A DNA stretch of 61,310 nt, from positions 1-61,310 of the IMG/VR virus record IMGVR_UViG_3300009506_001467. The stretch is one strand, 5' to 3'. A program made the position numbers and the translations under genes. Below, piece after piece: positions 8,550 through 56,918 of the stretch (positions are counted from its first letter, which is position 1; the number at the start of each line of letters is the position of its first letter). The DNA comes from a virus. Its lineage: Duplodnaviria; Caudoviricetes. A model generated the notes under the pieces. That model worked only from the letters and a program-made list of their open reading frames with translations. It did not search any database and was not told where the DNA came from.

Positions 8550-8979
8550 GCACTGGGACACGTCAAGCGATCGCGATCCGATCCAACGACCAGAGTGGTA
8601 TGAGGACACCGGCTCTCTGTGGGACGCTGCGTACTGGCCCGGCTTTACTCGTGAGATGATCGATCGGCTCAAGCATGTTGCCGATCTGTGGTCTATCCCA
8701 GCGAACAAAGCGATCTCTGAGCTCCCCACTCTGTTCTCTGCTTTCGCTGGCTCGCTGGACGATCTGATCATCCGTCTCCAAGAGCTCATTGAGCAGTACG
8801 GCGACGTGTTCACTATGCGTCTTGTGCCCGCCAAGCAGCGAGTGCTCATGCTCGGTCCTCGTCTCTGCACTCGGCGCGCCTACACTACAGAGCGAGCAAC
8901 GACCTATCCAGCACAGCCGCACATGTGGGGCAGATACAACCCGGCGACGGTCCCACGCATACGCAGCTCAACGAGGTAG
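8542..8979 (+). CDS. Hypothetical protein
   Basis: GGAGGT RBS; coupled to the previous ORF. Confidence 0.5.
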   Translation: MNEHWDTSSDRDPIQRPEWYEDTGSLWDAAYWPGFTREMIDRLKHVADLWSIPANKAISELPTLFSAFAGSLDDLIIRLQELIEQYGDVFTMRLVPAKQRVLMLGPRLCTRRAYTTERATTYPAQPHMWGRYNPATVPRIRSSTR

Positions 8980-9163
8980 GTCCCCAGCCCTACCTTTTTG
9001 ATAACGCCCCGCGGCATCGGGGCAATCCTCTCACCATAGAGCAGAGCGACCTCACCCACCGCTCTGCTCTACCTCTTTGCCCAGCGAACACAAAACACTC
9101 TCGGGGCAGAGAGTGCTCACTGCTCGAGAGTGCTTTGGCTTGTGCGATCGGCTGCGGTTTATG
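8972..9163 (-). ncRNA. Candidate structured non-coding RNA
   Basis: Intergenic, downstream of the minus-strand promoter at 9169-9198; several nested stems, e.g. tagagcagagcg/cgctctgctcta, gggcaa/ttgccc, aggtagg/cctacct. Confidence 0.45.
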
Positions 9164-9168
9164 CCCAC

Positions 9169-9232
9169 ATTCTACCACAATTCACGTCCTTACGTCAAGA
9201 GTCCTTGACAATGCTCTCAGATCTGGTATAAT
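9169..9232. promoter_or_regulatory. Divergent promoter pair
   Basis: Minus: TTGACG-18-TAGAAT (9198-9169). Plus: TTGACA-16-TATAAT (9205-9232). Confidence 0.65.
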
Positions 9233-9266
9233 GAGAGCATACTCATAACACGATCGCGGGACACAC

Positions 9267-9307
9267 GAGCCGCTTGCCTCTCACTGAGGGGAAGCGGCTC
9301 TTTTGTT
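9267..9307 (+). terminator. Intrinsic terminator/attenuator in the leader of the head genes
   Basis: gagccgctt...aagcggctc stem followed by ttttgtt. Confidence 0.6.
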
Positions 9308-9319
9308 ACAGGAGACGAC

Positions 9320-9796
9320 ATGAGTCAAGTGCAGAGTCCTCTATGGTCACAACCAACAGGCTGGGCGAATCCGCAGACTGTGAGGGCGTCCGCAGCTCTG
9401 CCAGCAGCAGGAGCGTGGGACACACCCACAGAGCTCAAGTGTGCATATGCACACGTTCTACATCTCCACTTCACCTACACCCGCGGTGGTGTGGGCGGTG
9501 CGTTTGACTGGATGATCGAGCTCTCGCCTTTTTCCGTCGCTGCTCTCGCTCCTGCTGGCGCACAAGAGTGGAACCGCCAGCCGATCTATGCTGCTGGCGC
9601 AGTAGTCCCCGGCGCAGACACGCAGAGCGATCTTGCCACCGAGTACTACACCTACCAAGCTCAAGGCGCAACAGCCGAGGACTTTGTTGTTGACGTACCG
9701 CTCTCTGGAAACGTCGAGCGGTACCGGGTCACTGCTCGAGAGTCGGGGGCTGTCGGCACGCCCGGAACCCTCGCAGTAGTAGGAGAGCTCTCATGA
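9320..9796 (+). CDS. Putative virion structural protein
   Basis: AGGAG RBS; beta-rich, Ala/Gly/Thr-rich; in the head module. Confidence 0.55.
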   Translation: MSQVQSPLWSQPTGWANPQTVRASAALPAAGAWDTPTELKCAYAHVLHLHFTYTRGGVGGAFDWMIELSPFSVAALAPAGAQEWNRQPIYAAGAVVPGADTQSDLATEYYTYQAQGATAEDFVVDVPLSGNVERYRVTARESGAVGTPGTLAVVGELS

Positions 9797-13213: not shown

Positions 13214-14347
13214 ATGATCACACGCAAACTGCTCCGGGCGATGTGCGAGACTTGGAAAGGCGAGCTCTCGGACGCCGGAGCGACACCACAACGGCTCGCA
13301 GAGTGCCAGAGTCTCTTTGAGGACATCGATCGCAACCTGTCGGGCGTCACCCCGACCAGCACGAATAACCTGCTGCTCCAAGAGGTGATGACGAGCGCCG
13401 ACTTCAACAACGCGATCCAGACCTTTGTGAGCAGGCTCTCGATCCCAGGCTACGAGCGCAAGGTATTCGCCTTTGAGCCCCTGGTGTGGATCGATACGCT
13501 CACAAACTTTTTGACCCATGACCGCTTGCAGAACCGCGGCTCGCTCGATGACCTCGAGCTCGTGGGCGAAAAGGGCGCGGCTCGCCCAGGCTCTGTGGAC
13601 GACGCCACCAAGCGATCGTACCGGGTCTACCTCTGGCAAAAGCAGTTCGATTTTTCCTGGGAGGCGATTCGCAACGATGACCTCTCGTACTTTGAGGACA
13701 CCGCCATGCGCATGGGCGAGGCCGCGCGCCGGACCCTGGAAAAGTTCGTCTCCCGCATGTACACCAACGCAACCTCGATCGCTCGTCTCACGGGCCTGGG
13801 CGCTCTCTATGCGCAGAATGGGCGCTTGACCTCTGCTCGAGTGAGCGAGTCCCGCATGGCGTACAACCAGCGCACAGACGCACGGGCAGAGCCGATCAAC
13901 GCCAGCATGCGCTACATCGTCCATCACACCGGGCTGGCAGACACCGTTGCACAGATCTTGGCCTCTGAGCTCGTCCCAGAGCTCGCGACCAACGCGGTCA
14001 ACGTCGCCCGAAACTTTATTCCCATCGAGGACCCGTACATCACGGGCACTGCCCCCAACCTACCGTGGTACGCATTCCCAGACTATCGCGAGAACAACAT
14101 CCGACCGTTTGTTCTGGCGCGTATGTCCGGCTGGGCGGGACCGCGCATCGTGCGCAAGCGATCGGACATCGAGGCCGTGACCTCAATGCTCGGCGCTGGT
14201 GCTCCTGTTGAGCCGATGATGGGAGACTTTGAGACGGGCAACGTGGTGCTCAAGGTCATGGACGTGTTCGGCACCTATGTCGATGGGACAGAGGGTAACT
14301 GGTTTGACTTCCGGGGTGGCTACTACTCTAGTGGCACCGTCGCGTAG
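13214..14347 (+). CDS. Major capsid protein (HK97 fold, Mu gpT-like)
   Basis: 377 aa, AGGAGG RBS; TSADF, LELVGEKG and FSWEAIRNDDL...MGEAARRT motifs. Confidence 0.8.
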   Translation: MITRKLLRAMCETWKGELSDAGATPQRLAECQSLFEDIDRNLSGVTPTSTNNLLLQEVMTSADFNNAIQTFVSRLSIPGYERKVFAFEPLVWIDTLTNFLTHDRLQNRGSLDDLELVGEKGAARPGSVDDATKRSYRVYLWQKQFDFSWEAIRNDDLSYFEDTAMRMGEAARRTLEKFVSRMYTNATSIARLTGLGALYAQNGRLTSARVSESRMAYNQRTDARAEPINASMRYIVHHTGLADTVAQILASELVPELATNAVNVARNFIPIEDPYITGTAPNLPWYAFPDYRENNIRPFVLARMSGWAGPRIVRKRSDIEAVTSMLGAGAPVEPMMGDFETGNVVLKVMDVFGTYVDGTEGNWFDFRGGYYSSGTVA

Positions 14348-21076: not shown

Positions 21077-21700
21077 GTGCCAAAGCTCTACGCGGTCAAG
21101 GACGGGAAAGTTTACGTTACCACGTCCACAGGTACTACAGTACAGTGCTTGCCGTACTGGAACGAGGTTATGCTCGCCGGGTCCTCTCTTTCATTCCCAG
21201 ACAAGCCAGACGTTCCAACGTATGAGGTTGAGGATGCAGACGGTGACAAGTTCACTAGAGAGCATACTCAGGAGTCCATAGATGACTCAAAGACATCCGA
21301 CGCTGATCGTGAGCTCTGGGCGTCATATCTCGCAGAGCTCGAGCAGTACAATGAGCAAGTGAGAGAGCTCAACGCTCAGAAAGAACTCATGCGCACTCGG
21401 ATGATCGCTCTCAAGGCAACCCGTATTGTCCCAGAGCCCGATCTCGACCTGTGGGCCAGAGAGTCTCTCGAGCTCTATGGGCTCGAGATGCCAAGCGATC
21501 CGAGAGAGCGCAAGCTCATGTACTTTGCCTCAGAGGTTATCAAGGTAGAACTCGATGGAGCGGCGATCATGGCGGGCATTGCCAGGGCAAGCGGCATGAC
21601 CGAGGATCAGCTCGATTCCATCGAGGAGTTGTTTCCAGATCCGCTGGGGAGCGGCAGACGGACGGACGCTCAAGCAGATCAGGACGAGGCTGCAACGTAA
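21077..21700 (+). CDS. Tail assembly chaperone (gpG-like)
   Basis: Between tail protein and TMP; GGGGAGG RBS. Confidence 0.65.
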   Translation: MPKLYAVKDGKVYVTTSTGTTVQCLPYWNEVMLAGSSLSFPDKPDVPTYEVEDADGDKFTREHTQESIDDSKTSDADRELWASYLAELEQYNEQVRELNAQKELMRTRMIALKATRIVPEPDLDLWARESLELYGLEMPSDPRERKLMYFASEVIKVELDGAAIMAGIARASGMTEDQLDSIEELFPDPLGSGRRTDAQADQDEAAT

Positions 21701-33080: not shown

Positions 33081-33467
33081 ATGTTGTCAACAGTAGTACC
33101 GCTGGTAGGCTGGGTCTCTCTCGTACTGCTCATGGCGCAGCCTGTGGACTGGACATCTCCCGCCGAGGTGCTGATCTGGATCGTCTCTGGGGCGGGTGCT
33201 GGCGCGATCGCGTTTGGGCTCTGGGAGCTCTTTGAGCGATGGTGGCCCAAGCTCGCAGAGCTCTCCGCTTTCGTTGAGCGAGTGATCACACTTGCGCTCA
33301 CCGTGCTCGTGGCGCTCATTGCTTACGGGTTGCAGCTCGCGGCGAGCTATAGAACGGTCCCAGAGACGTGGATGGGAGCAATAGAGGAGATCTTTGCGAT
33401 CGCAGCGATGGCGATCATGACCGCTCTCACCATACACGGGGTCAAGCACGAGATCCAGCACTCTTGA
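33081..33467 (+). CDS. Putative holin (multi-TM membrane protein)
   Basis: 128 aa with about four hydrophobic helices; AAGGAG RBS; end of the lysis cassette. Confidence 0.6.
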   Translation: MLSTVVPLVGWVSLVLLMAQPVDWTSPAEVLIWIVSGAGAGAIAFGLWELFERWWPKLAELSAFVERVITLALTVLVALIAYGLQLAASYRTVPETWMGAIEEIFAIAAMAIMTALTIHGVKHEIQHS

Positions 33468-33570
33468 CAGAGCCCCCCGGCTCGTGCTACAATGGTAGCA
33501 CTATAGGGGAGGGCACACAGCCCAACAAGAAAAGAGACCCGCTCCCGAGAGGGCGTGAGTCTCTTTTTCT
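33464..33570 (+). ncRNA. Candidate sRNA unit (promoter plus a transcript of about 70 nt)
   Basis: TTGACA-18-TACAAT at 33464-33493, no ORF, terminator at 33527-33570. Confidence 0.45.
33527..33570. terminator. Bidirectional intrinsic terminator between the convergent late and early arms
   Basis: aagaaaagagac...gtctctttttct hairpin flanked by A and T tracts. Confidence 0.75.
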
Positions 33571-33684
33571 GTGTGAGCTGATCTGTGTGCTACAGATCGC
33601 CCCACGTTCTGTACCAGTGTGCAGAGCTGCCTTCTCCTTCCGCATCATCCCACAGCTCTGCATCCAGAGCGGACCCGGCCTCAA

Positions 33685-33963
33685 CTATGAGCTCTGGGCA
33701 ATCGTACTTTGCGAGAGCTCGCCCCCGCATTCTGGACATGTCGCTGCGCAGCTCTCGCTCTCCCAGTCCTCTCTAGTCTCTACCGTCTCAAATTGAGCGC
33801 CGCACTCGCTGGGCTCATAGCCGTTGTTGGTCCACTCCCAACCGCGCCCGAGTCCACAGTACCAGCCTACTTTTACAGTCTCGCACTCTCTGGGCAGACC
33901 GTGCACAGGATCAGCTCGCGGCTCGATCGTCCCTTCCCATGAGATGTTCTCGAGATCGCTCAT
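33685..33963 (-). CDS. Small zinc-ribbon protein
   Basis: WYCG...ECG and CPECGG motifs. Confidence 0.55.
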   Translation of the reverse strand: MSDLENISWEGTIEPRADPVHGLPRECETVKVGWYCGLGRGWEWTNNGYEPSECGAQFETVETREDWESESCAATCPECGGELSQSTIAQSS

Positions 33964-34454
33964 TGCTTGAGATCCAGTATAGACTTGCCCCGGTAGATGT
34001 GAAAGTGCTCTGAGATCTGCGCCTCGGGCAAGATGACATCACAGCGATCAACCTCTACAGGCAGACGACTATAGCCGACCGTGCCGTTCTCAGTGTAGAC
34101 GACATAGAACCGATGTGCCGCTGCTCTGCGCTCAATGAGCACGTCCCCGACCTCGGGCAGTGCGGGCTCTTTGAGTCTGCGCATGTGCTGGATCGCGGTC
34201 TGGTTGGTGAGCAGTTTCCAGTACCCAGCATAGGCGAGCTCAACCTCAACGAGATCGCCCTCAGTGAGCTCGAGCGGGACCTGTGTCGCCCACTTGCCCA
34301 TCTCCCAGCAGAACGTCCTCGTCCTCGCGTTGTGCAGGATCTGTGGCTCATCCGTCTCGATGTCCACATCATAGATCGAGTGCTCGACCTCGAGCATACA
34401 GATCTTGCGATTATGGGCTTCCCACGTTGCTGTGATCGTTGCAAGTGATCTCAT
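33960..34454 (-). CDS. Hypothetical protein
   Basis: AGGAGG RBS; ATGA overlap. Confidence 0.6.
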   Translation of the reverse strand: MRSLATITATWEAHNRKICMLEVEHSIYDVDIETDEPQILHNARTRTFCWEMGKWATQVPLELTEGDLVEVELAYAGYWKLLTNQTAIQHMRRLKEPALPEVGDVLIERRAAAHRFYVVYTENGTVGYSRLPVEVDRCDVILPEAQISEHFHIYRGKSILDLKQ

Positions 34455-34738
34455 GAGAGCTCCTCCTGTGCGTTGAGTGCTGCGTTGATCAGTCTCTGCG
34501 CCATCCATCGGATCTGACCTTGCAGAGCTTGATCGACGGACTCGGGATCTCTGCCGATCTCGAGCTGCGAGCGCATGATCTTGATCTGCTCAACGATCTC
34601 GCTCGCAAACTGAGCGCAGATCTGCTCATTGTACTGCTCTCGAGCCTCTCGGGCAGCTCGCTGCGCTTGCTTGAGCTGATCCTTGATCTGGTACGTCTCT
34701 GTGTGTACGCTGTACAAGCTATAGTCCCCGTTCCCCAT
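34451..34738 (-). CDS. Hypothetical coiled-coil protein
   Basis: GAGGAG RBS before ATG 34738. Confidence 0.6.
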   Translation of the reverse strand: MGNGDYSLYSVHTETYQIKDQLKQAQRAAREAREQYNEQICAQFASEIVEQIKIMRSQLEIGRDPESVDQALQGQIRWMAQRLINAALNAQEELS

Positions 34739-34771
34739 TGTAGATCTCCTCTCTGTCCTGCTTGTGTGTGT

Positions 34772-34913
34772 ACTGCTCCCCTGATCTTTGACTCTCGGAT
34801 GCTGCGCTTGAGTACTTGCTCCGTAGAGCTTGCAGGTTTTCCCCAACCCTCTAGGTCGGATGCCTCTGTACTCGAGCGAGTTCTCCCCGAGAGTCAAAGA
34901 TCAGGGGAGCAGT
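34772..34913. repeat. Perfect 27-bp inverted repeat enclosing further stems (rod-like structured RNA/DNA)
   Basis: actgctcccctgatctttgactctcgg (34772-98) is the reverse complement of 34887-34913; inner stems cgcttgagtac/gtactcgagcg, tagag/ctcta, ggtt/aacc. Confidence 0.85.
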
Positions 34914-34916
34914 GTA

Positions 34917-35186
34917 CTAGTCCAGTCCCGTTGCCTCAACAAACGTGAGCATGTGCTTTGTCAGTGCGATCAACGTGTGCGGTGTGTGTGAGAGCTGCTC
35001 TCCCGTGAACCCGCTGGTCTGCTTGTCGTATCCCTCAGTGCCATCGCTGCTCTGTGACGTGCTCTCTACAGATACGAGCTCAAAGCTCTCGAAAGTCTGC
35101 GTCCAGGTGTACGTGTGCCAACTATGCAGTGTGTACTCGTTGACTCTGTGTACCGTCTCGTATGTGACCGTGACTTGCTTGCTCAT
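34917..35186 (-). CDS. Hypothetical protein
   Basis: GAGGAG RBS; first gene after the promoter at 35232-35260. Confidence 0.55.
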   Translation of the reverse strand: MSKQVTVTYETVHRVNEYTLHSWHTYTWTQTFESFELVSVESTSQSSDGTEGYDKQTSGFTGEQLSHTPHTLIALTKHMLTFVEATGLD

Positions 35187-35231
35187 CTGTGCTCTCTCCT
35201 CTGTCGTATTGTTTACTCACTGTCAAGAGCC

Positions 35232-35260
35232 ATTGTATCATAACACAGAGAACTTGTCAA
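35232..35260 (-). promoter_or_regulatory. Early promoter
   Basis: TTGACA-17-TACAAT plus the TGACAGTGAG leader motif. Confidence 0.7.
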
Positions 35261-35265
35261 GGCCC

Positions 35266-35371
35266 AAAAAAGAAAGCGAGCGCATGGGGGGATAATATGC
35301 GCTCGCTTCTCGGCCCAGTAGAGCCACTCGGTTGTATGCTCATTGTACCACGTCTCACTGCTCACTGTCAA
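35266..35371 (-). ncRNA. Candidate sRNA unit A
   Basis: TTGACA-18-TACAAT (35371-35342), then about 70 nt ending in an aagcgagcgcat/atgcgctcgctt stem and U tract. Confidence 0.5.
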
Positions 35372-35384
35372 GACCCCCGGCACA

Positions 35385-35493
35385 GCAAAAGGACCGAGCG
35401 GTCCCGGTGCGGGGTTCTCGATCCTTTTTCTGCGGGTAGAGCTATAGGAGTCTGTGTACGCTCATTCTACCACGTTCTGTGTGCTCTTGTCAA
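35385..35493 (-). ncRNA. Candidate sRNA unit B
   Basis: TTGACA-18-TAGAAT (35493-35464), then about 75 nt ending in an aaaggatcgag/ctcggtccttt stem and U tract. Confidence 0.5.
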
Positions 35494-35497
35494 CAGA

Positions 35498-35722
35498 TCA
35501 GGTCAGTGCGTCCAGCTCCTCAGGTGTGAGCTCTAGACCAAGCGATCTCGCATGCTTCTCTGCAAGATACCGACTCACTTGCCTGTCTGTGGGCTCTAGA
35601 GCTTTCTGTATGAGTCGCCGCAGCTCTTGCAGCTCGTCCACTGTTAGACCTACAACGATCCGAGATCCAATGGTCAGCCTGTGCAGTCCCTCACTCTTGC
35701 GCTCGAGCTTGATCACTCTCAC
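35498..35722 (-). CDS. Hypothetical protein
   Basis: GTGA overlap with the upstream gene. Confidence 0.5.
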   Translation of the reverse strand: MRVIKLERKSEGLHRLTIGSRIVVGLTVDELQELRRLIQKALEPTDRQVSRYLAEKHARSLGLELTPEELDALT

Positions 35723-36135
35723 TTGATCGTCTCACTCTCAGGAGAGCTCATCTCGATGCCCCAGATCCGATGCACCGCTCTGCTCACTCGCTCAACGTCT
35801 CCGAGCGTATGGCGGGTCAAGCTCTCGGCGCAAGGGAACACGTACTCAAAGAACTGTGCCAGCAAGATCGCCCTGTTCTCGTGCTCGATGTGCTGCTCGA
35901 GCTGCTCGATGCTCATATTGTGGCCCATGATGTGCGCGTCCCCATGCGCAAGACCGATCCTGATCTCTACTGGTTTGATCTTGAGCTCGCCGTGCGCAAG
36001 TGCATCCGGATCGATCTCTTTGATCACAAAGATCTCAGCCCAGCCCTTCTCTAGTACAATCGTTGCCTTGACAAAGGTCTGCGAGCTCTCAACTCTGATC
36101 TCTGGGTATGTTCTCTCGCTCACATTGCCCTCCAT
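35719..36135 (-). CDS. Hypothetical protein
   Basis: Packed operon ORF. Confidence 0.55.
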   Translation of the reverse strand: MEGNVSERTYPEIRVESSQTFVKATIVLEKGWAEIFVIKEIDPDALAHGELKIKPVEIRIGLAHGDAHIMGHNMSIEQLEQHIEHENRAILLAQFFEYVFPCAESLTRHTLGDVERVSRAVHRIWGIEMSSPESETIK

Positions 36136-36443
36136 AACGCATCACTGACCATCTGCAACGATCTGGCGTCGGCTTTCGCAAAGTCTCCCGGTTCCGAGAT
36201 CTCTGCGTTGAGTACAGAGCCGATCAGTGCGCACGTCTCGAGCTCTGCCGCCCGTTCTCGAGCTGCGGACACGCTCATGGGAAGGCTTGCTATGTTGACA
36301 TCGATCACAGCATCCAGCACCTTGCGCGATCCGCTCACCACCGCCAGACTCTTTCGGATGATGATATCCGCGCCGCCTCTGTACTGTACTCTGATCTCCG
36401 CATCTGTTGAGCTCGTTTTCACTGAGATCTCCACGTCGTTCAT
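36120..36443 (-). CDS. Hypothetical protein
   Basis: AGAGAGGG RBS; packed operon ORF. Confidence 0.55.
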   Translation of the reverse strand: MNDVEISVKTSSTDAEIRVQYRGGADIIIRKSLAVVSGSRKVLDAVIDVNIASLPMSVSAARERAAELETCALIGSVLNAEISEPGDFAKADARSLQMVSDALWRAM

Positions 36444-36514
36444 GATCCCTCTCTTTCAGTGTGTGTGAGAGAGCTCTGCCCAGTGCAGAGCTCTCTAGTC
36501 TCGATGCTAGTACA

Positions 36515-38536
36515 CTAGCCTCTCTTTACAAAGTACAGCTCACTCTTGCTCCGTGTTAGTGCTACATAGAGGATGTTCCGCTCTTGCTGCACATCCTCGG
36601 GGCGGGTCGCTTTCGGGTGCGGCATCAGCCCGGGCTCGAGAATCCAAACTCGCTCGCTCTCTGCGCCTTTCGCTTTATGCACACTCGAGAACGTGACACC
36701 CTCCTGCTCATCTGAGAATACGCTCTGGATCTTGCGCTCGAGCTCTCGTACCGTCTCGCAGCCATCGCTCAGAGCGTAGATCGTCTCCGCATTGTCCTCT
36801 AGGTTCTGCGCTCGCAGCTCTGCGCCTCTCTTGATGAGCTTGGCAACCTCGTGCCTCGTGTAGACAACCATCTGCTCGAGCGTATCCTCTAGAGTGTGGA
36901 CTCTGTACTTTTTCTGCACCCTGTAAACCATCTGCAGGAGCCCCTTGCCGATGTCTCGCCCGAGTATAACTGCTTTCTTGCCTTGTCGGATCAGGTCGAA
37001 CGCTGGCTTAACTAGTGGAGCATTGCAGCGGCAGAGCACCATGTCCCCTTGCTTGACGTCTCTCTGGAACTTGAACTCTCCGACCGTCTCAACCGTGCCT
37101 TCCGCTGCGCCCTCTCTCGCCTCGATGTGCGGGACCAGCTCTTGTGCGAGCTTGACGTGTGAGCTCGGGCAGCGGTAGGTGATGCTCAGTGGCAGTACTT
37201 TTGCGCCTGTTGCCTTGATCAGCCCTGGGATAGCGTTGATATCCGCGCCCCTGAACCCGTATATGCTTTGCCAGCGATCCCCGACCCCGATGATCCTTCC
37301 CGACTCTTTCACACTGCGCAGCGCCATCTTGATCTGGGCTGCGTTCCAGTCCTGTACCTCATCCCCGAACAAGATGTCAAACTGCTCGCAAGGAACTCTC
37401 CCGGTCGCGCAAAAGTCTATCATGTCGTCAAAGTCTACGATCTTTGTCTCTGCTCTACTGAGTGCAAGCACCTTGCGAGCGATGTCAAAGATTGTATCCT
37501 GAGAGTCGTTGATCTCGATGTTATAGCTTGAGCAGAGCTGCCAGAGCGTGCTATCATCTGACCCGCTCATGGTCGCCTTGATCAGGCTTACCAGTTTCTG
37601 GATGCTTGTCTTGTTGAGCATAACGATCTCGTACCCATCGGTGGGGAGTTTCTCTGCGAGGTTCGCGATCAGGTCTTGCACCTTGTTGGGCTCGACCTTG
37701 ACTCTGCCCAGAGCTGCTCTGATATTCGAGAGCCCGAGGCTGTGCAGCGTGCTGACCGAGACGTGCTCTGGCGCCCTGCGGCTCAGCTCTTTTGCGATGT
37801 GCGTATTGAACGCAACGAAAGCGACCTTGGCATCCTTTGGGGTGTACTCGAGCCCGTGGACGATCGTTGTCGTCTTGCCGCTGCCCGCTACCGCCTCGAT
37901 GACCAGGTTTCCTGTACCGTGCTCGATCTCTGTAAAGATCGCTCTCTGGTACTCGCTCCACTTGATCTCTTTTTTCTCTGCTCTCTCTGTGCTCTCTGCT
38001 TGCTCAACGTTGCGGGTTCCTCTGCACTTTGGAAAGTCGGAGCAGCCCCAGAACTGGGAGCCCGCGTTCTGACCCTTGCGAGCTGTGCGCAGAACCATCT
38101 CAGCCCCGCACTTTGGGCAGCTCGGTGACTCGCTCTCGAGCTCTGTGCTCTCTCCGCTCTCGATCTTTGGTGCGGGGGTCAACCCAGCGGTCGCAACGAG
38201 CGCCCCGAACTTTTCAACAAAGCGATCGTCCCATCCTTCTGTTCGCTGTGTGTACGACTCTTTGCCCATCGGGACCCATTCTCTGCGATCGTTGAGGTAC
38301 GAGATCCAGAGTCGGATCGAGTCCTTGCCGGCCTCTGCGCTCACCCCGCTCGCCTTGACACTCGAGCGCACCCAGATGGCTTTTCCTGACTCCCCGATCA
38401 GCACTGCGTATGTGTGCTCATTGAACTGTAGGCCCTGGTACGAGATGCGAGAGCCCTCTCGCTCAGAGAGATGCTCTCGAGCTGCTCTCACTAGTACTTG
38501 CTCGAACTCTTGCTTGCTGAACGTCTGTACTGTCAT
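36515..38536 (-). CDS. UvrD/Rep-like SF1 helicase with an N-terminal topoisomerase-type C4 zinc ribbon
   Basis: AVAGSGKTT, DEVQD, VGDRWQSIYGFRGAD, TYRC, HKAKGAE, YVALTR; CPKCG...FWGCSDFPKC zinc ribbon. Confidence 0.92.
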   Translation of the reverse strand: MTVQTFSKQEFEQVLVRAAREHLSEREGSRISYQGLQFNEHTYAVLIGESGKAIWVRSSVKASGVSAEAGKDSIRLWISYLNDRREWVPMGKESYTQRTEGWDDRFVEKFGALVATAGLTPAPKIESGESTELESESPSCPKCGAEMVLRTARKGQNAGSQFWGCSDFPKCRGTRNVEQAESTERAEKKEIKWSEYQRAIFTEIEHGTGNLVIEAVAGSGKTTTIVHGLEYTPKDAKVAFVAFNTHIAKELSRRAPEHVSVSTLHSLGLSNIRAALGRVKVEPNKVQDLIANLAEKLPTDGYEIVMLNKTSIQKLVSLIKATMSGSDDSTLWQLCSSYNIEINDSQDTIFDIARKVLALSRAETKIVDFDDMIDFCATGRVPCEQFDILFGDEVQDWNAAQIKMALRSVKESGRIIGVGDRWQSIYGFRGADINAIPGLIKATGAKVLPLSITYRCPSSHVKLAQELVPHIEAREGAAEGTVETVGEFKFQRDVKQGDMVLCRCNAPLVKPAFDLIRQGKKAVILGRDIGKGLLQMVYRVQKKYRVHTLEDTLEQMVVYTRHEVAKLIKRGAELRAQNLEDNAETIYALSDGCETVRELERKIQSVFSDEQEGVTFSSVHKAKGAESERVWILEPGLMPHPKATRPEDVQQERNILYVALTRSKSELYFVKRG

Positions 38537-38578
38537 CTTGTGATCTCCTTTATGTTCGTATGCTCACTGTCAAGAGCC

Positions 38579-38607
38579 ATTATATCACAAGACAGAACCA
38601 TTGTCAA
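38579..38607 (-). promoter_or_regulatory. Early promoter for the helicase operon
   Basis: TTGACA-17-TATAAT plus the TGACAGTGAG leader motif. Confidence 0.75.
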
Positions 38608-38622
38608 GGCCCAAACTATACA

Positions 38623-43479: not shown

Positions 43480-44004
43480 TCATTCCGTCCAGATCTTGTT
43501 TTTCAGAATACGGCACACTGTAGACAAGCAAACAGGATAGATCTCTGAGAGCTTACTCGGAGCGATCCCGCTCTTGTGCTGCGCTCTCATCTCTCGCACG
43601 AGATCCCAGGTCATCTTGGATTGTGGGTGTCTCTCTCCTGCTGGCAACCCCCGAGATCTGCCCTTCTCTGTCTTGTCTCTGTTGTTGTCTTGTATGGTTC
43701 CCAGAAACAAGTGATCTGGGTTCACACAGGACGGGTTATCGCAGTGGTGGCAGATACACATCCCGGTTGGAATACTTCCCTTGAACAGAGCCCAGGCAAG
43801 TCTATGCGCTCTCCAACGAACATAGTCAACAGTGATCCTGCCGTATCCGTCATGCTCTGTGTATCCTGTCCACAGCCAGCAGTCCCCCGATCGGTCAACG
43901 TTCTCGAGGAACCGCCCAAGCTCTCGCCCTGCACTGCTAAAACTTGACAAGACTTTCTTGCAGTGCTTGGGACAAGTACTTTCTGACCCGTGTATAATTC
44001 CCAT
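43480..44004 (-). CDS. HNH homing endonuclease (start uncertain)
   Basis: CWLWTG...GYG...RAHRLAW...CHHCDNPSCVNPDHLFLGT; C-terminal HTH. Confidence 0.85.
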   Translation of the reverse strand: MGIIHGSESTCPKHCKKVLSSFSSAGRELGRFLENVDRSGDCWLWTGYTEHDGYGRITVDYVRWRAHRLAWALFKGSIPTGMCICHHCDNPSCVNPDHLFLGTIQDNNRDKTEKGRSRGLPAGERHPQSKMTWDLVREMRAQHKSGIAPSKLSEIYPVCLSTVCRILKNKIWTE

Positions 44005-45682
44005 CAGCAATAGCGACAAGTCCCCGCCTTTCTGTTGGTGTATCATAGTCAAAGTCCCTTCCTCTACGTGTTCTACCGAGTGACTGTTCAAGTGTCCAGG
44101 CCGCACGTTGCAGATAGAATTTCCCACTATACCTTTGGCGTGCTCTCTCGTACGGATCCCCGAGATATGGGAACGGCACTTTTGCAGATATACAGATCTT
44201 TTCGTCAAGCTCCGGGTAATAGACACCGTTGATCATTCCCGATCCGTCCATCCCCTCTGCGAACTGCCAGCAGATCATGATCGCGCCCGGTGACATCTTG
44301 CGCCGCAGCAGCCAGAGCTCTGCTTGCTCATCTGTTCCCAAATATCCCCTTGTACAGTTTGGGCCATACAGGCAGAGCTTGCAGTCCAGATCGCAGTGCT
44401 GCGCACTGGTCGGCGGGATCCACACTCTACCCTTGAGACCGAGCTCGATCAAGCGTCCGGCAAGCAACGGGGCCTCACTCTTTCTTGTGACGTGGATCAT
44501 ACCGCACCAACTCGAGGGCGCAGACTCGATCGCCGCAGCGATCACCTCCGCTTGCTTTTCATACTCTGCACTGCCTGACTTGTGTCCCATCCTCGGCGCA
44601 TCGAGCACAAAAACGGGACGCGCCTCTGGCGGGTACGGGTTCTGCATCCTGCGGTGGTCAAACGTACTCAGCCCGAGTTCCTCTCCAAACGTCTCAAAGT
44701 CCCCGATCGTTGCGGACATGATCACTGTACTCTTTGAGCTCGTGAACAACCTGGGAAAGTGATGTCTTGCTGTGAGCGGTCGGATCACCAAGCCCGGCGT
44801 CGGCTCGTACACTCCCGATCTCCTGTTGAGTCTCTGTAGAGCTCGAGGGCCAGACTCAATGTACCACGCATCCTCACACAGATCGATCGCTGTGCGGGTC
44901 GTCTCTAGTTTGTGCTGCAAGTGAGACGCTTTTCGAGCTTGCTCTCTAGAGTCCGCACTCTGTAGAGCGGCAACGTGCTTGCCCATGACCCTGATCGCTC
45001 TCTCGAGCCACTCTCTCACGAGATCGATCGGGTCGTCTTGCTCTACAACGTCCATTACCGTGAGGTTCCCGAACGCGGAGATCATTCTCGGCAGATCGTC
45101 CGATCTGCTCGCTGCAATGCGTGGAAACTCGGGTAGCCACCATCTCTGTTGTGTGCTTGCGTCTATTGTACAGCCCGACCACTCGAGCACGAGATCCGAG
45201 AGCTGGTGGCCCTCATCGAGGAACATCACATCATGCGGGCACTCTCGGAAGAACTTTGATCGCAGATAATACGCATAATTGAGGCTCGCCTTTCTGCTTG
45301 CTCTCACGATGTCTCTCTGTACGATGTACGGGCAATCACTGTAGACCTCGCATCTTGACATGCGATCTGAGTACAGGCACTCCCCCGCGGTCGCGCCGTA
45401 CTCTGCGTCCTCGTGTATGCACTCATAGTTATCCTTGCCAAAGAGCGGATCGAACCCGTACTCCTCGGAATAGTTCTTGACTTGCAGCACTTTGGTCCTG
45501 CACACTGCAAGCACGCTTTTCTCACTCGCAGAGCCCGCGGCGATCGCGGTCTTGCCACTGCCTGTCGGTGCCTCGAGCACACCGACGCCCTCTACACGCA
45601 TTGCCCAGAGCAGAGACTCCTCTTGCCCATCTCTGAACTCATCATGATTGCTCGGCAACCCATAGTCCTGCGGGCTAGACAT
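43937..45682 (-). CDS. DinG/XPD-family SF2 helicase
   Basis: APTGSGKT, GKDNYEC and Fe-S-type Cys cluster, DEGH, MSAT, KVPFP, QSLGRTRR. Confidence 0.9.
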   Translation of the reverse strand: MSSPQDYGLPSNHDEFRDGQEESLLWAMRVEGVGVLEAPTGSGKTAIAAGSASEKSVLAVCRTKVLQVKNYSEEYGFDPLFGKDNYECIHEDAEYGATAGECLYSDRMSRCEVYSDCPYIVQRDIVRASRKASLNYAYYLRSKFFRECPHDVMFLDEGHQLSDLVLEWSGCTIDASTQQRWWLPEFPRIAASRSDDLPRMISAFGNLTVMDVVEQDDPIDLVREWLERAIRVMGKHVAALQSADSREQARKASHLQHKLETTRTAIDLCEDAWYIESGPRALQRLNRRSGVYEPTPGLVIRPLTARHHFPRLFTSSKSTVIMSATIGDFETFGEELGLSTFDHRRMQNPYPPEARPVFVLDAPRMGHKSGSAEYEKQAEVIAAAIESAPSSWCGMIHVTRKSEAPLLAGRLIELGLKGRVWIPPTSAQHCDLDCKLCLYGPNCTRGYLGTDEQAELWLLRRKMSPGAIMICWQFAEGMDGSGMINGVYYPELDEKICISAKVPFPYLGDPYERARQRYSGKFYLQRAAWTLEQSLGRTRRGRDFDYDTPTERRGLVAIADGNYTRVRKYLSQALQESLVKF

Positions 45683-47872: not shown

Positions 47873-48352
47873 CTAGTCATGAAACTCTCTCCACCTCTCG
47901 TTTCTCCATATAGCGAGAATGAGACGGTGCCCAGAACTGTATCTACGCCCAACCTCTCGGGCAGAGAGACCGGACTCCCTGAGATCCCAGATCTCTTGTA
48001 CTTGATCAGTCTCTAGATACATAGGCTGTGAAAACCACTTTCTATGGTGCTCTTTTCTGTCTTGCGCGTTCTCTTGAGGAGATCCCCATGCTAGGTTCTC
48101 GAGAGAGTTATTGGATGGATCGCCATCAAGATGACGGCACACCTGACCGTCACCCCTTGCACGCACAAACGTGCTCAGAACTAGTACATGAACTTTACAA
48201 GGACACTTTTTGAGTGTGCTATCGTAGAGAATGAGTCTATGATACCCTTTTGGATCGACCTGCGGTTTTAGGACCCTCTTTGTTTTCCTGTTTCTAATCA
48301 TGCCATTCTGTGAGGCTTCATACTTGCTGAACTCTGGAATCTGCTTCCACAT
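47873..48352 (-). CDS. NUMOD4-HNH homing endonuclease
   Basis: WKQIPEFSKYEASQNGMIRN (NUMOD4); CRHLDGDPSNNSLENLAWG. Confidence 0.88.
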   Translation of the reverse strand: MWKQIPEFSKYEASQNGMIRNRKTKRVLKPQVDPKGYHRLILYDSTLKKCPCKVHVLVLSTFVRARGDGQVCRHLDGDPSNNSLENLAWGSPQENAQDRKEHHRKWFSQPMYLETDQVQEIWDLRESGLSAREVGRRYSSGHRLILAIWRNERWREFHD

Positions 48353-49962: not shown

Positions 49963-50009
49963 TGTAGCCTCCTCTGTGTGTCGTTTCTGTTTGCTCACTG
50001 TCAAGAGCC

Positions 50010-50099
50010 ATTATATCATATCTGAGATCCTTTGTCAAGACCCAAATTGAGACAATTCGGACAATTCCCTTGACAAGAGGATCAGTGATGTGGTACAAT
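50010..50099. promoter_or_regulatory. Divergent promoter pair (early arm vs partition operon)
   Basis: Minus: TTGACA-17-TATAAT (50038-50010). Plus: TTGACA-18-TACAAT (50070-50099). ACAATTC repeats lie between them. Confidence 0.75.
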
Positions 50100-50131
50100 G
50101 AGCTCACTCATATACAGATAGGAGCTCAAAG

Positions 50132-50347
50132 ATGGATCAAGTACATGTCGGAGAGATCACGGTAACACGGATTCTAGGTATCACCGAGCCGCTGGCCTTG
50201 ATCTATCACCGCACAAAAAAGATCGTAGGCTACATTCTACCCGCCACCCAGGAGACTAGAGAGCTCTTGGGCATCGACCCCGAGACGGGGCAAGAGCAAG
50301 GGGAGGGACCATGCTCGCAGCACTTGACATCGGATACGGAGCAGTAA
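50132..50347 (+). CDS. Hypothetical protein
   Basis: AGGAG RBS; first gene of the par operon. Confidence 0.5.
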   Translation: MDQVHVGEITVTRILGITEPLALIYHRTKKIVGYILPATQETRELLGIDPETGQEQGEGPCSQHLTSDTEQ

Positions 50348-51303
50348 AGATCGCATGCGGGGGCGAGCGCAGGACGTTCCCAAGTGTGACGGGATCGCCG
50401 GACTTGCATCGTTTTGGACTGAGCGCAGCGGACGAGATCATTATCTCGAACCACATCGGTCGCACGCTGATCGGGAGTGCAGCCGTGGAGCAGTCCCGGT
50501 TTGTGAGACGTGAGGAGGATCGGCGCTGGATACGTTCTGAGCAGTACACTGCTCTCTACTACGCCGCCCTCACAGAGATCAGCAGGGAACCGGCAGAGAT
50601 CACCCTGATCTCGGGTCTGCCCCTCGCGTACTTTGACGACAAGGACGAGCTGAAAGAGATCTTGTCCGGTGCGCACAGGGTCACTAGAGAGTACGCGGAC
50701 GGAGTGCGCTCGAGCTCATACGACGTACAGGCGCACATCATTCCCCAGCCGTTCGGGACGCTCTGCTCGATGGCGTTTGACAAGAGCGGATCGCCCAAAG
50801 ATACATCGTGGCTCTCGGGGACCGTGGGAATTCTTGACGTCGGCTCTCACACAACCAACATCCTCACGACCTCGAGGGGGCGAGAAGTCCCGCACGGCAC
50901 GACCTCTGTGCCTACGGGCTGCTGGGACATCGTGAGGGCGATCTCCGCTCGAGTCTCTGAGCTCTTTCCACAGCTCGAGCGCAGAGATCATGATCTGGTC
51001 AACGACATCATTGCCAAGCGAGTTACCTACCTCGGTCGAGAGTACAGCATCGAGAAGGCGATCGCAGAGGTCTGCACACCGATGGCGGCAGAGATCATCG
51101 CCACCGCCTCACAGTACTGGAACGGCGGCGCAGCTCTGGACAAGATCGTGATAACAGGAGGCGGCGCACACCTGATCGGTGAGCACGTCTCGCTACACTT
51201 TGCGCAGCACGAGCAGGTGTACATCGCTCCCGATCCTGTGTTCGCAAACGTGGACGGGTACTTGCGCTATGGGTTCTACTTGCAGAGTCAAGGAGAGGTC
51301 TAG
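50311..51303 (+). CDS. parM: ParM/StbA-family actin-like ATPase
   Basis: LDIGYGAVK (phosphate 1), FPS, SGLP, IPQP, LDVGSHTTN (phosphate 2), TGGGA, FANVDG. Confidence 0.9.
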   Translation: MLAALDIGYGAVKIACGGERRTFPSVTGSPDLHRFGLSAADEIIISNHIGRTLIGSAAVEQSRFVRREEDRRWIRSEQYTALYYAALTEISREPAEITLISGLPLAYFDDKDELKEILSGAHRVTREYADGVRSSSYDVQAHIIPQPFGTLCSMAFDKSGSPKDTSWLSGTVGILDVGSHTTNILTTSRGREVPHGTTSVPTGCWDIVRAISARVSELFPQLERRDHDLVNDIIAKRVTYLGREYSIEKAIAEVCTPMAAEIIATASQYWNGGAALDKIVITGGGAHLIGEHVSLHFAQHEQVYIAPDPVFANVDGYLRYGFYLQSQGEV

Positions 51304-56779: not shown

Positions 56780-56814
56780 GCTCACAGCTCGCTCTCACAG
56801 CTCAGCCCCACAGA

Positions 56815-56918
56815 CACAAAAAGCCCCGGAGGGCTCTGTGCTACACTTGCTCCCGGGACTCTTTGATCCTGCTTGCTATAGTACCACCATTATACTGCTA
56901 CACCCCTACCCCTGTCAA
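56815..56918 (-). ncRNA. Candidate sRNA unit
   Basis: TTGACA-18-TATAAT (56918-56889), then about 70 nt ending in an agtcccgggag/ctccggggct stem and U tract; no ORF. Confidence 0.45.

Follow-up and report, generated by a model that had tools for sequence, protein, structure and literature searches.

Two tandem promoter-terminator units without open reading frames, tentatively read as small RNA genes, in a siphovirus-type phage genome

The window, by which we mean the whole stretch of DNA that we analysed, is a siphovirus-type genome of 61,310 bp (61.3 kb); the virus record is complete and has direct terminal repeats. A rightward structural block at ~0.8-33.5 kb has matches to terminase, portal, capsid/protease, tape-measure, and virion proteins. 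A leftward block at ~50-33.6 kb encodes a UvrD-type helicase with a zinc ribbon, an AAA_24 ATPase, a Dam-like methylase, and two HNH endonucleases. We scanned 28 of the window's proteins against Pfam and 20 against PHROGs. Most of the early proteins were orphans, and there was no integrase, repressor, antiterminator, or RNA chaperone family among the 28 proteins (Pfam) and the 20 (PHROGs). The two endonuclease genes in the replication block belong to the HNH_3 family (43480-44226 and 47873-48352, - strand), one of them has a NUMOD4 motif, and they are probably homing endonucleases. The phage also encodes a ParM/ALP actin-like segregation protein (50311-51303, + strand; ALP_N, 1e-21; MreB-like_C, 1e-15). 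Together with the lack of any integrase among the proteins scanned, this hints at a plasmid-like prophage state or at the positioning of phage DNA inside the cell. The sole sequencing run that contains the phage is a DNA run from a marine-sediment metagenome, which is possibly its source. When we used the helicase to search prokaryote genomes for a host or a prophage, the best relative was 35% identical, so no host was assigned.

Downstream of the helicase operon, three promoters are stacked on the - strand. The first two are each followed by a terminator and no gene, and the third leads to a gene. We refer to the first two arrangements as units A and B. The features are as follows.

35464-35493, - strand: promoter PA, TTGACA, 18-nt spacer, TGgTAGAAT
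35384-35457, - strand: unit A, a predicted RNA of ~70-74 nt (both ends are predicted)
35387-35425, - strand: terminator tA, a 6-bp GGGACC/GGTCC hairpin or a 9-bp stem with a 22-nt interior, then TTTTGCTG
35342-35371, - strand: promoter PB, TTGACA, 18-nt spacer, TGgTACAAT
35266-35335, - strand: unit B, a predicted RNA of ~66-70 nt
35265-35309, - strand: terminator tB, a perfect 13-bp stem with an 11-nt loop, then CTTTTTTGGG / CUUUUUUGGG (CUUUUUU in the RNA)
35260-35232, - strand: promoter P3, TTGACA-17-TACAAT
35187-35260, - strand: P3 and its leader, which begins GGCTCTTGACAGTGAG and ends in the ribosome-binding site GAGGAGAG, with an ATG at 35186

The sequence-only reading of this DNA had proposed three near-consensus leftward promoters at 35493-35464, 35371-35342, and 35260-35232, and all three are there: each is of the sigma70 type, with 11 of 12 consensus matches and a TG before the -10 box (an extended -10). 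When we scanned 33500-37500 for consensus promoters, we found 6 promoter-like sites, versus 1.6 +/- 1.4 in 50 shuffles, and the top three were PA, PB, and P3. Across the window, the pattern TTGACA-N15-19-TGNTANAAT has 6 matches, versus 0 in each of 100 shuffles. (P3 lies just beyond the gap range of this pattern and was detected by a wider promoter scan, which gives 13-16 strong promoters genome-wide.) Phage T7 has three tandem early promoters, A1, A2, and A3, with no terminators between them; here, too, strong host-type promoters are stacked within a few hundred bp, but with terminators between them.

P3 is the mRNA promoter of the operon that begins with an 89-aa ORF, which it reaches via a conserved leader. 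It is one of four leader-type promoters in the window (at 798, 35260, 38607, and 50038) that are 82-87% identical, share the repeated leader GGCTCTTGACAGTGAGCAxAC, and all lead to genes. PA and PB instead have in common a 21-nt repeat around the -10 box (ACGTGGTAsAATGAGCrTACA), which is identical at 19 of 21 positions; the GAGC(A/G)TACA that had been noticed after both -10 boxes is real and is part of this longer repeat. Also, the -35 region of PB (35361-35376) is a 15/16 copy of an element of the P3 leader. Because its -35 region copies the P3 leader and its -10 and start copy PA, PB looks like a chimera that would have arisen by recombination between the repeated promoter parts of the phage. 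Such an origin fits with the rapid turnover of the surrounding small ORFs.

Units A and B had been described as running for about 70 nt from promoter to terminator without an ORF. This holds for both, with the qualification that their terminators are unequal: tB is very strong, while tA is weak because its U tract is short and its hairpin is branched or has a long loop. Because of this, a discrete A RNA is uncertain. The - strand frames that cross the units encode 56, 33, and 29 aa, all from GTG starts, and none has a Shine-Dalgarno sequence. In the predicted fold of unit A, the 5' part has ~30 single-stranded nt, which carry CUCCUAUAG and ACCCGCAG, and the 3' part is a 9-bp stem around a 22-nt C-rich interior, followed by UUUUGCU (minimum free energy, -23.9 kcal/mol; z, -2.9; 1 of 200 shuffles as good). 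Unit B has a small 5' hairpin (GGCUC/GGGCC) and then the strong terminator (-31.5 kcal/mol; z, -4.3; 0 of 200 shuffles as good). The T-run of tB, along with GGGCC, also serves as the TTTGGGCC element that is seen upstream of leader-type promoters. Two short motifs did not hold up as well. GCTCTAC is indeed in both units, which means little for a common 7-mer with 26 sites in the window. The anti-Shine-Dalgarno-like CUCCU that had been assigned to unit B is actually in the upstream unit (promoter 35493), and it is not kept in the nearest relative.

Both units occupy the stretch that separates the last stop codon of the helicase operon (35498) from the only terminators in that operon's path; PA begins 5 nt past that stop codon, which is that of a 74-aa ORF (35498-35722). 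tA is the first terminator that the operon reaches. Thus, tA and tB also terminate the helicase operon, and the A and B RNAs would be identical to its 3' UTR.

The same design, with a consensus promoter, 65-85 ORF-less nt, and a terminator, occurs four more times in the window. This makes six units, with promoters at 9198(-), 9205(+), 33464(+), 35493(-), 35371(-), and 56918(-). The four besides A and B are as follows.

33464-33578, + strand: W_3, an ORF-less RNA of ~75 nt at a convergent junction, ending at a bidirectional terminator (33531-33574)
56812-56918, - strand: W_4, TTGACA-18-TATAAT with no TG, an ORF-less RNA of ~70 nt that starts with ACUAUAGCA, terminator at 56837-56812
9086-9198, - strand: W_9198, TTGACG-18-TGgTAGAAT, an ORF-less RNA of ~80 nt, terminator at 9117-9086
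9205-9319, + strand: P9205, a terminated leader with a 12/12 promoter match and TG, a 13-bp terminator at 9267-9308, a ribosome-binding site, and an ATG at 9320

Our automatic filter found that 4 of 13 strict promoters were units, and we added 56918 and one more by reading. Neither promoters nor units turned up in a control, the reversed sequence of the window (0 of each). Of random 130-nt stretches, ~6% pass the terminator test, versus 4-5 of the 13 strict promoters (P = 0.006-0.0006), so the excess is not random. By the same filter, 243 other loci (2.6 Mb) contain 3 units, which is a rough guide, as the hosts and promoter types probably differ. (An initial hairpin filter, with loops of at most 12 nt, gave 7 units in 3 of 161 sources; it missed the branched terminators of the nearest relative, and a fold-based filter was used instead.)

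The units do not all face genes. A, B, P9205, and W_4 are co-directional with their downstream genes. In contrast, W_3, with a promoter that overlaps the last late gene at its stop codon, and W_9198, which is divergent from P9205 and antisense to rightward late transcription, have no gene to lead into: what they face is convergent or antisense genes, and their terminators are shared. These two therefore cannot serve to feed genes.

P9205 is a different case. Its transcript starts with GAGAGCATAC, like those of A and B, and it is directly upstream of structural genes. The only strong rightward promoters ahead of ~24 kb of structural genes are P9205 and P830, and there are none further on, up to 33463. 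Since the structural genes from 9320 sit behind a strong terminator (9267-9308) with no other strong rightward promoter, read-through of that terminator or antitermination must occur. As judged from this layout, P9205 would be a terminator-gated entry to the structural genes. A gated layout of this kind recurs in the nearest relative (11047-); in the window, the observation spans 9205-9319 (+) and 8974-9003 (+).

Comparing 1 kb around the units to a phage DNA database with blastn gave no match, and neither the helicase nor the 89-aa ORF, each scanned singly against a viral collection, gave any relatives. A search with a helicase alignment recovered 80 viral loci. The nearest is in G001 (locus L005), a complete phage of 64,290 bp whose helicase is 68% identical, and a metagenome scan with a tight helicase alignment found nothing closer than this (best, 56% identity). 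When we compared four unit regions to the collected loci with blastn, there were three chance-level matches, none of them in L005 or L006. G001 and the window are collinear: of the 15 window proteins that we tested, 10 have tblastn matches in G001, and their order is the same. The 5 without a match are small ORFs that adjoin the units (92, 148, 89, 74, and 107 aa). G001 has 13 perfect extended -10 promoters, versus 0 in a reversed-pattern control. One of its ORF-less units, G_a, follows the helicase operon and precedes a leader-type promoter, and it is syntenic with the A site. The others are a divergent pair in the structural block, one unit that matches 56918, and two in tandem at a convergent junction. 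So each of these two genomes has one tandem pair, at different sites; B has no partner in G001, and unit b of G001 has no partner in the window.

A third collinear phage, L086, is more distant (29-45% identity over five replication genes). It has a clear ORF-less unit at 13601, in the equivalent spot, just upstream of a leader-type promoter. By reading, we also noticed a probable second tandem unit in L086 (13724-13812, + strand) with a TGgTATACT extended -10 and a weak -35. Its terminator, a hairpin around an interior of ~21 nt with a short T-run, has the same odd shape as those of unit A and G_a. Our comparison covers three genomes (the window, G001, and L086), and in these diverged phages the promoters at the unit sites remain near consensus (11-12 of 12, plus TG). 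In G001, a unit has been retained at the end of the helicase operon, though the flanking small ORFs have been replaced.

The transcribed parts behave differently. In global alignments, with shuffles as controls, the sole clearly homologous pair was W_3 and the unit at the G001 junction, G_c (z = 10.8). These share a predicted fold with a free 5' end, a GGGC/GCCC hairpin, an A-rich linker, and the terminator; a scan of the viral collection with their core pattern found only G001. For unit A and the syntenic G_a, z was 3.6, which is not above the values for A and non-syntenic units (4.2 and 3.6). By eye, these two had seemed to be homologous (TAxTAG...TACC(C)GCAGA), and we rejected this because the alignment was no better than for non-syntenic pairs. 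As far as these alignments tell, conservation of A and B is limited to their position and design. Some short motifs are specific in position, at the very start of transcripts. Of the 4 AACTTA sites in G001, 3 closely follow the -10 of a unit. CTATAG, which is palindromic, is within 3 units out of 11 sites in the window. GAGCRTAC, with which A and B start, has 20 sites in the genome, and at 6 of them, including P9205 and three leader-type promoters, a -10 precedes it by 0-17 nt. ACCGCAG has 15 sites in the window, of which only 1 is inside a unit; both ACCGCAG and GGAUC presumably resemble the 3' end of 16S rRNA, a reading that we dropped.

What would such RNAs do? The sequence-only reading had taken the units for an array of phage small RNAs: antisense regulators, RNA antitoxins, anti-CRISPR RNAs, or protein sponges. 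Their stand-alone, ORF-less anatomy is borne out, and it recurs in four further units of the window and in two relatives at syntenic sites, but none of the functions that it named is borne out. There is no credible antisense partner opposite A or B: the sole + strand frame is an unsupported 115-aa ORF with a GTG start (35189-35536), and no + strand promoter reads into it. The 5' parts of A and B pair with 65 translation-start regions of the phage no better than chance (shuffles were as good in 35% of cases for A and 86% for B). Two candidate pairings were dropped. Pairing of CUCCUAUAG in unit A with CUAUAGGGGAG in W_3 (9 bp) is not kept in G001. An arm of the B terminator is complementary to the 148-aa ORF at 14 of 16 nt, which is within chance, and this pairing would compete with the B hairpin. 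As for an antitoxin, we found no toxin family among 8 neighboring proteins and no tandem repeat array; within A and B, direct repeats are limited to the promoter core (21 nt) and the leader copy (16 nt). The proposed check against Rfam was also negative: with Rfam 15, the window has 0 matches at the gathering threshold, and 34800-35800 has 3 sub-threshold matches at E <= 10, with 17-18 bits versus thresholds of 37-62, to the terminator hairpin only. ARAGORN found 0 tRNA or tmRNA genes in the window. Finally, the CI RNA of P4 and the CA RNA of N15, which are also short and promoter-proximal, regulate transcription further downstream. They arise by processing of leaders and pair at known sites within their own operon; we found no such sites for A or B.

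Our preferred reading, which we hold tentatively and at a little under even chances, is that A and B are genes for small non-coding RNAs, located where the helicase operon has its terminators. Each unit would have its own sigma70 extended -10 promoter that is fired by the host's RNA polymerase from the start of infection, without any phage factors. Each transcript is predicted to stop after ~70 nt at the intrinsic terminator. These would be 3'-UTR-type small RNAs with their own promoters, located between the last stop codon of the helicase operon and the operon's terminators. The RNA product, with ~30 accessible nt at its 5' end and a terminator hairpin, would be the functional part, and it might act in trans on RNAs or proteins of the host or the phage. 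The sequences themselves show the promoters and terminators, the missing ORF, the excess over chance, and the kept positions in relatives; we infer the transcription, termination, stability, and trans action of the A and B RNAs. We favor this reading because near-consensus promoters have been kept in three diverged phages, because a unit has been kept at the site while its neighboring genes were replaced, and because two of the units face no gene and one of these is conserved in sequence. W_3 and W_9198 cannot feed genes, so what matters about them must be the RNA or, at a minimum, the act of making it. Against this reading, the transcribed parts of A and B have no demonstrable conservation, and B has no partner in G001. 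Also, as the gated leader of P9205 illustrates, a promoter followed by a terminator need not mean an RNA gene in this phage, and the chimeric PB is what would be expected of a recombination by-product.

The size of the predicted RNAs is in line with known phage small RNAs: in the portion of PMC12197685 available to us, Sar is 68/69 nt, OOP is 77 nt, and StxS is 74 nt. Like lambda OOP and P22 Sar as described there, A and B are phage-encoded and have their own promoters, a terminator hairpin, and no ORF. However, OOP and Sar are cis-antisense to cII and ant, respectively, according to the same portion of PMC12197685, whereas opposite A and B there is no credible gene, we found no target for either, and they have no relation to OOP or Sar by sequence or by Rfam.

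The main alternative, which we consider somewhat unlikely, is that PA and PB are always on and that their transcripts stop at tA and tB until an antitermination system of the phage acts. Read-through would then add late transcription of the operon from the 89-aa ORF to the 92-aa ORF on top of that from P3, and the ~70-nt RNAs would be by-products. They could double as small RNAs, so this is not mutually exclusive with the small-RNA reading. The model for such a stack is PR'-tR' of lambdoid phages, where, from the available sections of PMC7547250, the short transcript StxS is a small RNA. A and B resemble StxS and the lambda 6S-type PR'-tR' (PMC7547250, same sections) in having an always-on sigma70 promoter, a nearly immediate intrinsic terminator, an ORF-less RNA of ~70 nt, and co-directional genes; the terminators of A and B are within the ~200 nt of a strong promoter that characterizes PR'-tR'. 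P9205 has the same design and start (GAGAGCATAC versus GAGCrTACA), is directly before a ribosome-binding site and structural genes, and has no other strong rightward promoter for ~24 kb past it, so read-through must happen at least there. The positions of GAGCRTAC just past the -10 box, the orientation of four of the six units, and the weakness of tA also favor this alternative. But there is one PR'-tR' unit per lambdoid genome, tied to the Q antiterminator gene and the late genes, as far as those sections of PMC7547250 go. Here there are six units, of which two are in tandem before an operon with its own promoter and two (W_3 and W_9198) face no gene. There is no Q-like, N-like, or other antiterminator among the proteins that we scanned (28 with Pfam and 20 with PHROGs), although most of the early proteins are orphans. 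Furthermore, the downstream operon already has a consensus promoter (P3), and tB is very strong. Inspecting the starts by eye for a -10-like pause element, we saw CATACT after P9205, TACACA after A, and TACAAC after B, and the latter two lack the final T; no consistent element was apparent after A and B.

It is less likely still, and improbable in our judgment, that the units are empty expression cassettes: by-products of recombination among promoter, leader, and terminator modules that lost their gene and make an RNA without a selected function. The shuffling would be akin to that of PeSLs or morons, in a fast-changing region of small ORFs. The chimeric structure of PB (15/16 P3-type leader copy joined to a 19/21 copy of the PA -10 region), the fourfold repetition of the leader-type promoter, and the five small ORFs that have no tblastn match in G001 when the larger genes do are all consistent with this, as is the absence of B from G001 and of the G001 unit b from the window. 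In the part of PMC2839356 that we could draw on, the PeSLs of T4-type phages are strong sigma70 promoters with terminator stem-loops that recombine with each other within hyperplastic ORFan regions. Repeated promoters of this type with terminator stem-loops, amid small orphan ORFs without a homolog in G001, are also what we see here. However, PeSLs are linkers that end in a Shine-Dalgarno sequence and the start codon of an ORFan, with the stem-loop in or next to the promoter (PMC2839356, same part). A and B would transcribe ~70 nt, end at a terminator, and have neither a Shine-Dalgarno sequence nor a start codon. The leader-type promoters, such as P3, which leads to a Shine-Dalgarno sequence and an ORF start, are a closer match. 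In addition, promoters that are not under selection should decay, but in three diverged phages PA, PB, and the equivalent promoters still match the consensus at 11-12 of 12 positions and have the TG. A unit has been kept at the same site despite turnover of the flanking ORFs, and W_3 is conserved in sequence.

A narrower form of the small-RNA reading is that the RNAs are decoys against host defenses, either mimics of CRISPR repeats like Racrs or mimics of RNA antitoxins; we think this very unlikely. Like Racrs as presented in the available part of PMC10651486, A and B would be short ORF-less phage RNAs with a strong native promoter, and their promoters are within 250 bp upstream, as for the solitary repeat-like units that are Racr candidates in that part of PMC10651486. 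But Racrs are defined by their likeness to the CRISPR repeats of the host (again in that part of PMC10651486). Past the promoter core, A and B have no repeat-like segment in common. Similarly, a ToxI-like type III antitoxin would be an array of direct repeats beside the gene for a toxin endoribonuclease, and there is neither a tandem array nor a nearby toxin gene. The chance co-occurrence of promoter-like and terminator-like sequences, for which one might cite the weakness of tA and the ~6% of random windows that pass the terminator filter, we regard as most improbable, given the 6 extended -10 consensus matches versus 0 in 100 shuffles, the lack of promoters in the reversed-sequence control, the association with terminators, and the recurrence of the design at syntenic sites in relatives.

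If we return to the small-RNA reading, it can be taken further, to a broader proposal that we offer as speculation and think rather doubtful. In an uncultured marine-sediment lineage of ~60-kb siphoviruses, about one third of the strongest host-type promoters would serve a battery of 5-6 fast-evolving RNAs of ~70 nt at the ends of operons, some in tandem. These would carry a phage-specific 5' motif (ACUAUAG here and AACUUAG in the relative) and would form an arsenal for host takeover or counter-defense that is read by a co-evolving factor of the phage or the host through recognition of this motif.

What is known of phage small RNAs comes mostly from a handful of temperate model coliphages. In this complete genome of an environmental phage, there is a set of strongly promoted mini-units that lack genes, and their positions are kept in diverged relatives while their neighbors are replaced. 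If the RNAs are real and functional, then RNA-level control or counter-defense would be part of the regular gene content of a group of phages, and the six units would be compact, testable candidates. If the units are gated leaders instead, then an unrecognised antitermination system would act at several sites. Either way, near-consensus promoters with clean terminators are ready-made parts for in vitro use.

We noticed several other regulatory features. First, between the 89-aa ORF and the next gene there is a 142-nt hairpin (34772-34913, - strand) with a perfect stem of 27-28 bp and a structured interior of 86-88 nt (-88.6 kcal/mol; z, -11). It is absent from G001. Its presence implies an internal ATG near 34738 as the true start of the 148-aa ORF with a TTG start (34451-34897). 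Candidate readings of the hairpin are a miniature inverted-repeat insertion, a site for RNase III, and a structured RNA. Second, there are divergent pairs of consensus promoters at 798-/830+ (735-860) and 50038-/50070+ (49975-50100). Each pair has GACAATTC/GAATTGTC repeats on its flanks, immediately before the -35 boxes, and these repeats look like putative operator sites for a regulator. Third, the leader-type promoters have TGACA(G/A)TGAG 5-6 nt after the -10 (35216-35231, 38563-38615, 49979-50046, and 747-781). This signature (-35, extended -10, and TGACA(G/A)TGAG) is also present in G001 and in the unrelated contigs L264, L265, L267, and L268; a scan with the leader-promoter pattern found 5 further contigs, namely one near-identical strain of G001 and four unrelated phages without A/B-like units. 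The signature may be a host-linked or widely shared regulatory element. Lastly, the leader of P830 (860-960, + strand) has ~100 nt with two GC-rich hairpins, and it shares GATCCCAGATCC with its counterpart in G001 (~21450-21546, - strand), so it may be a leader RNA that acts in cis on the late operon.
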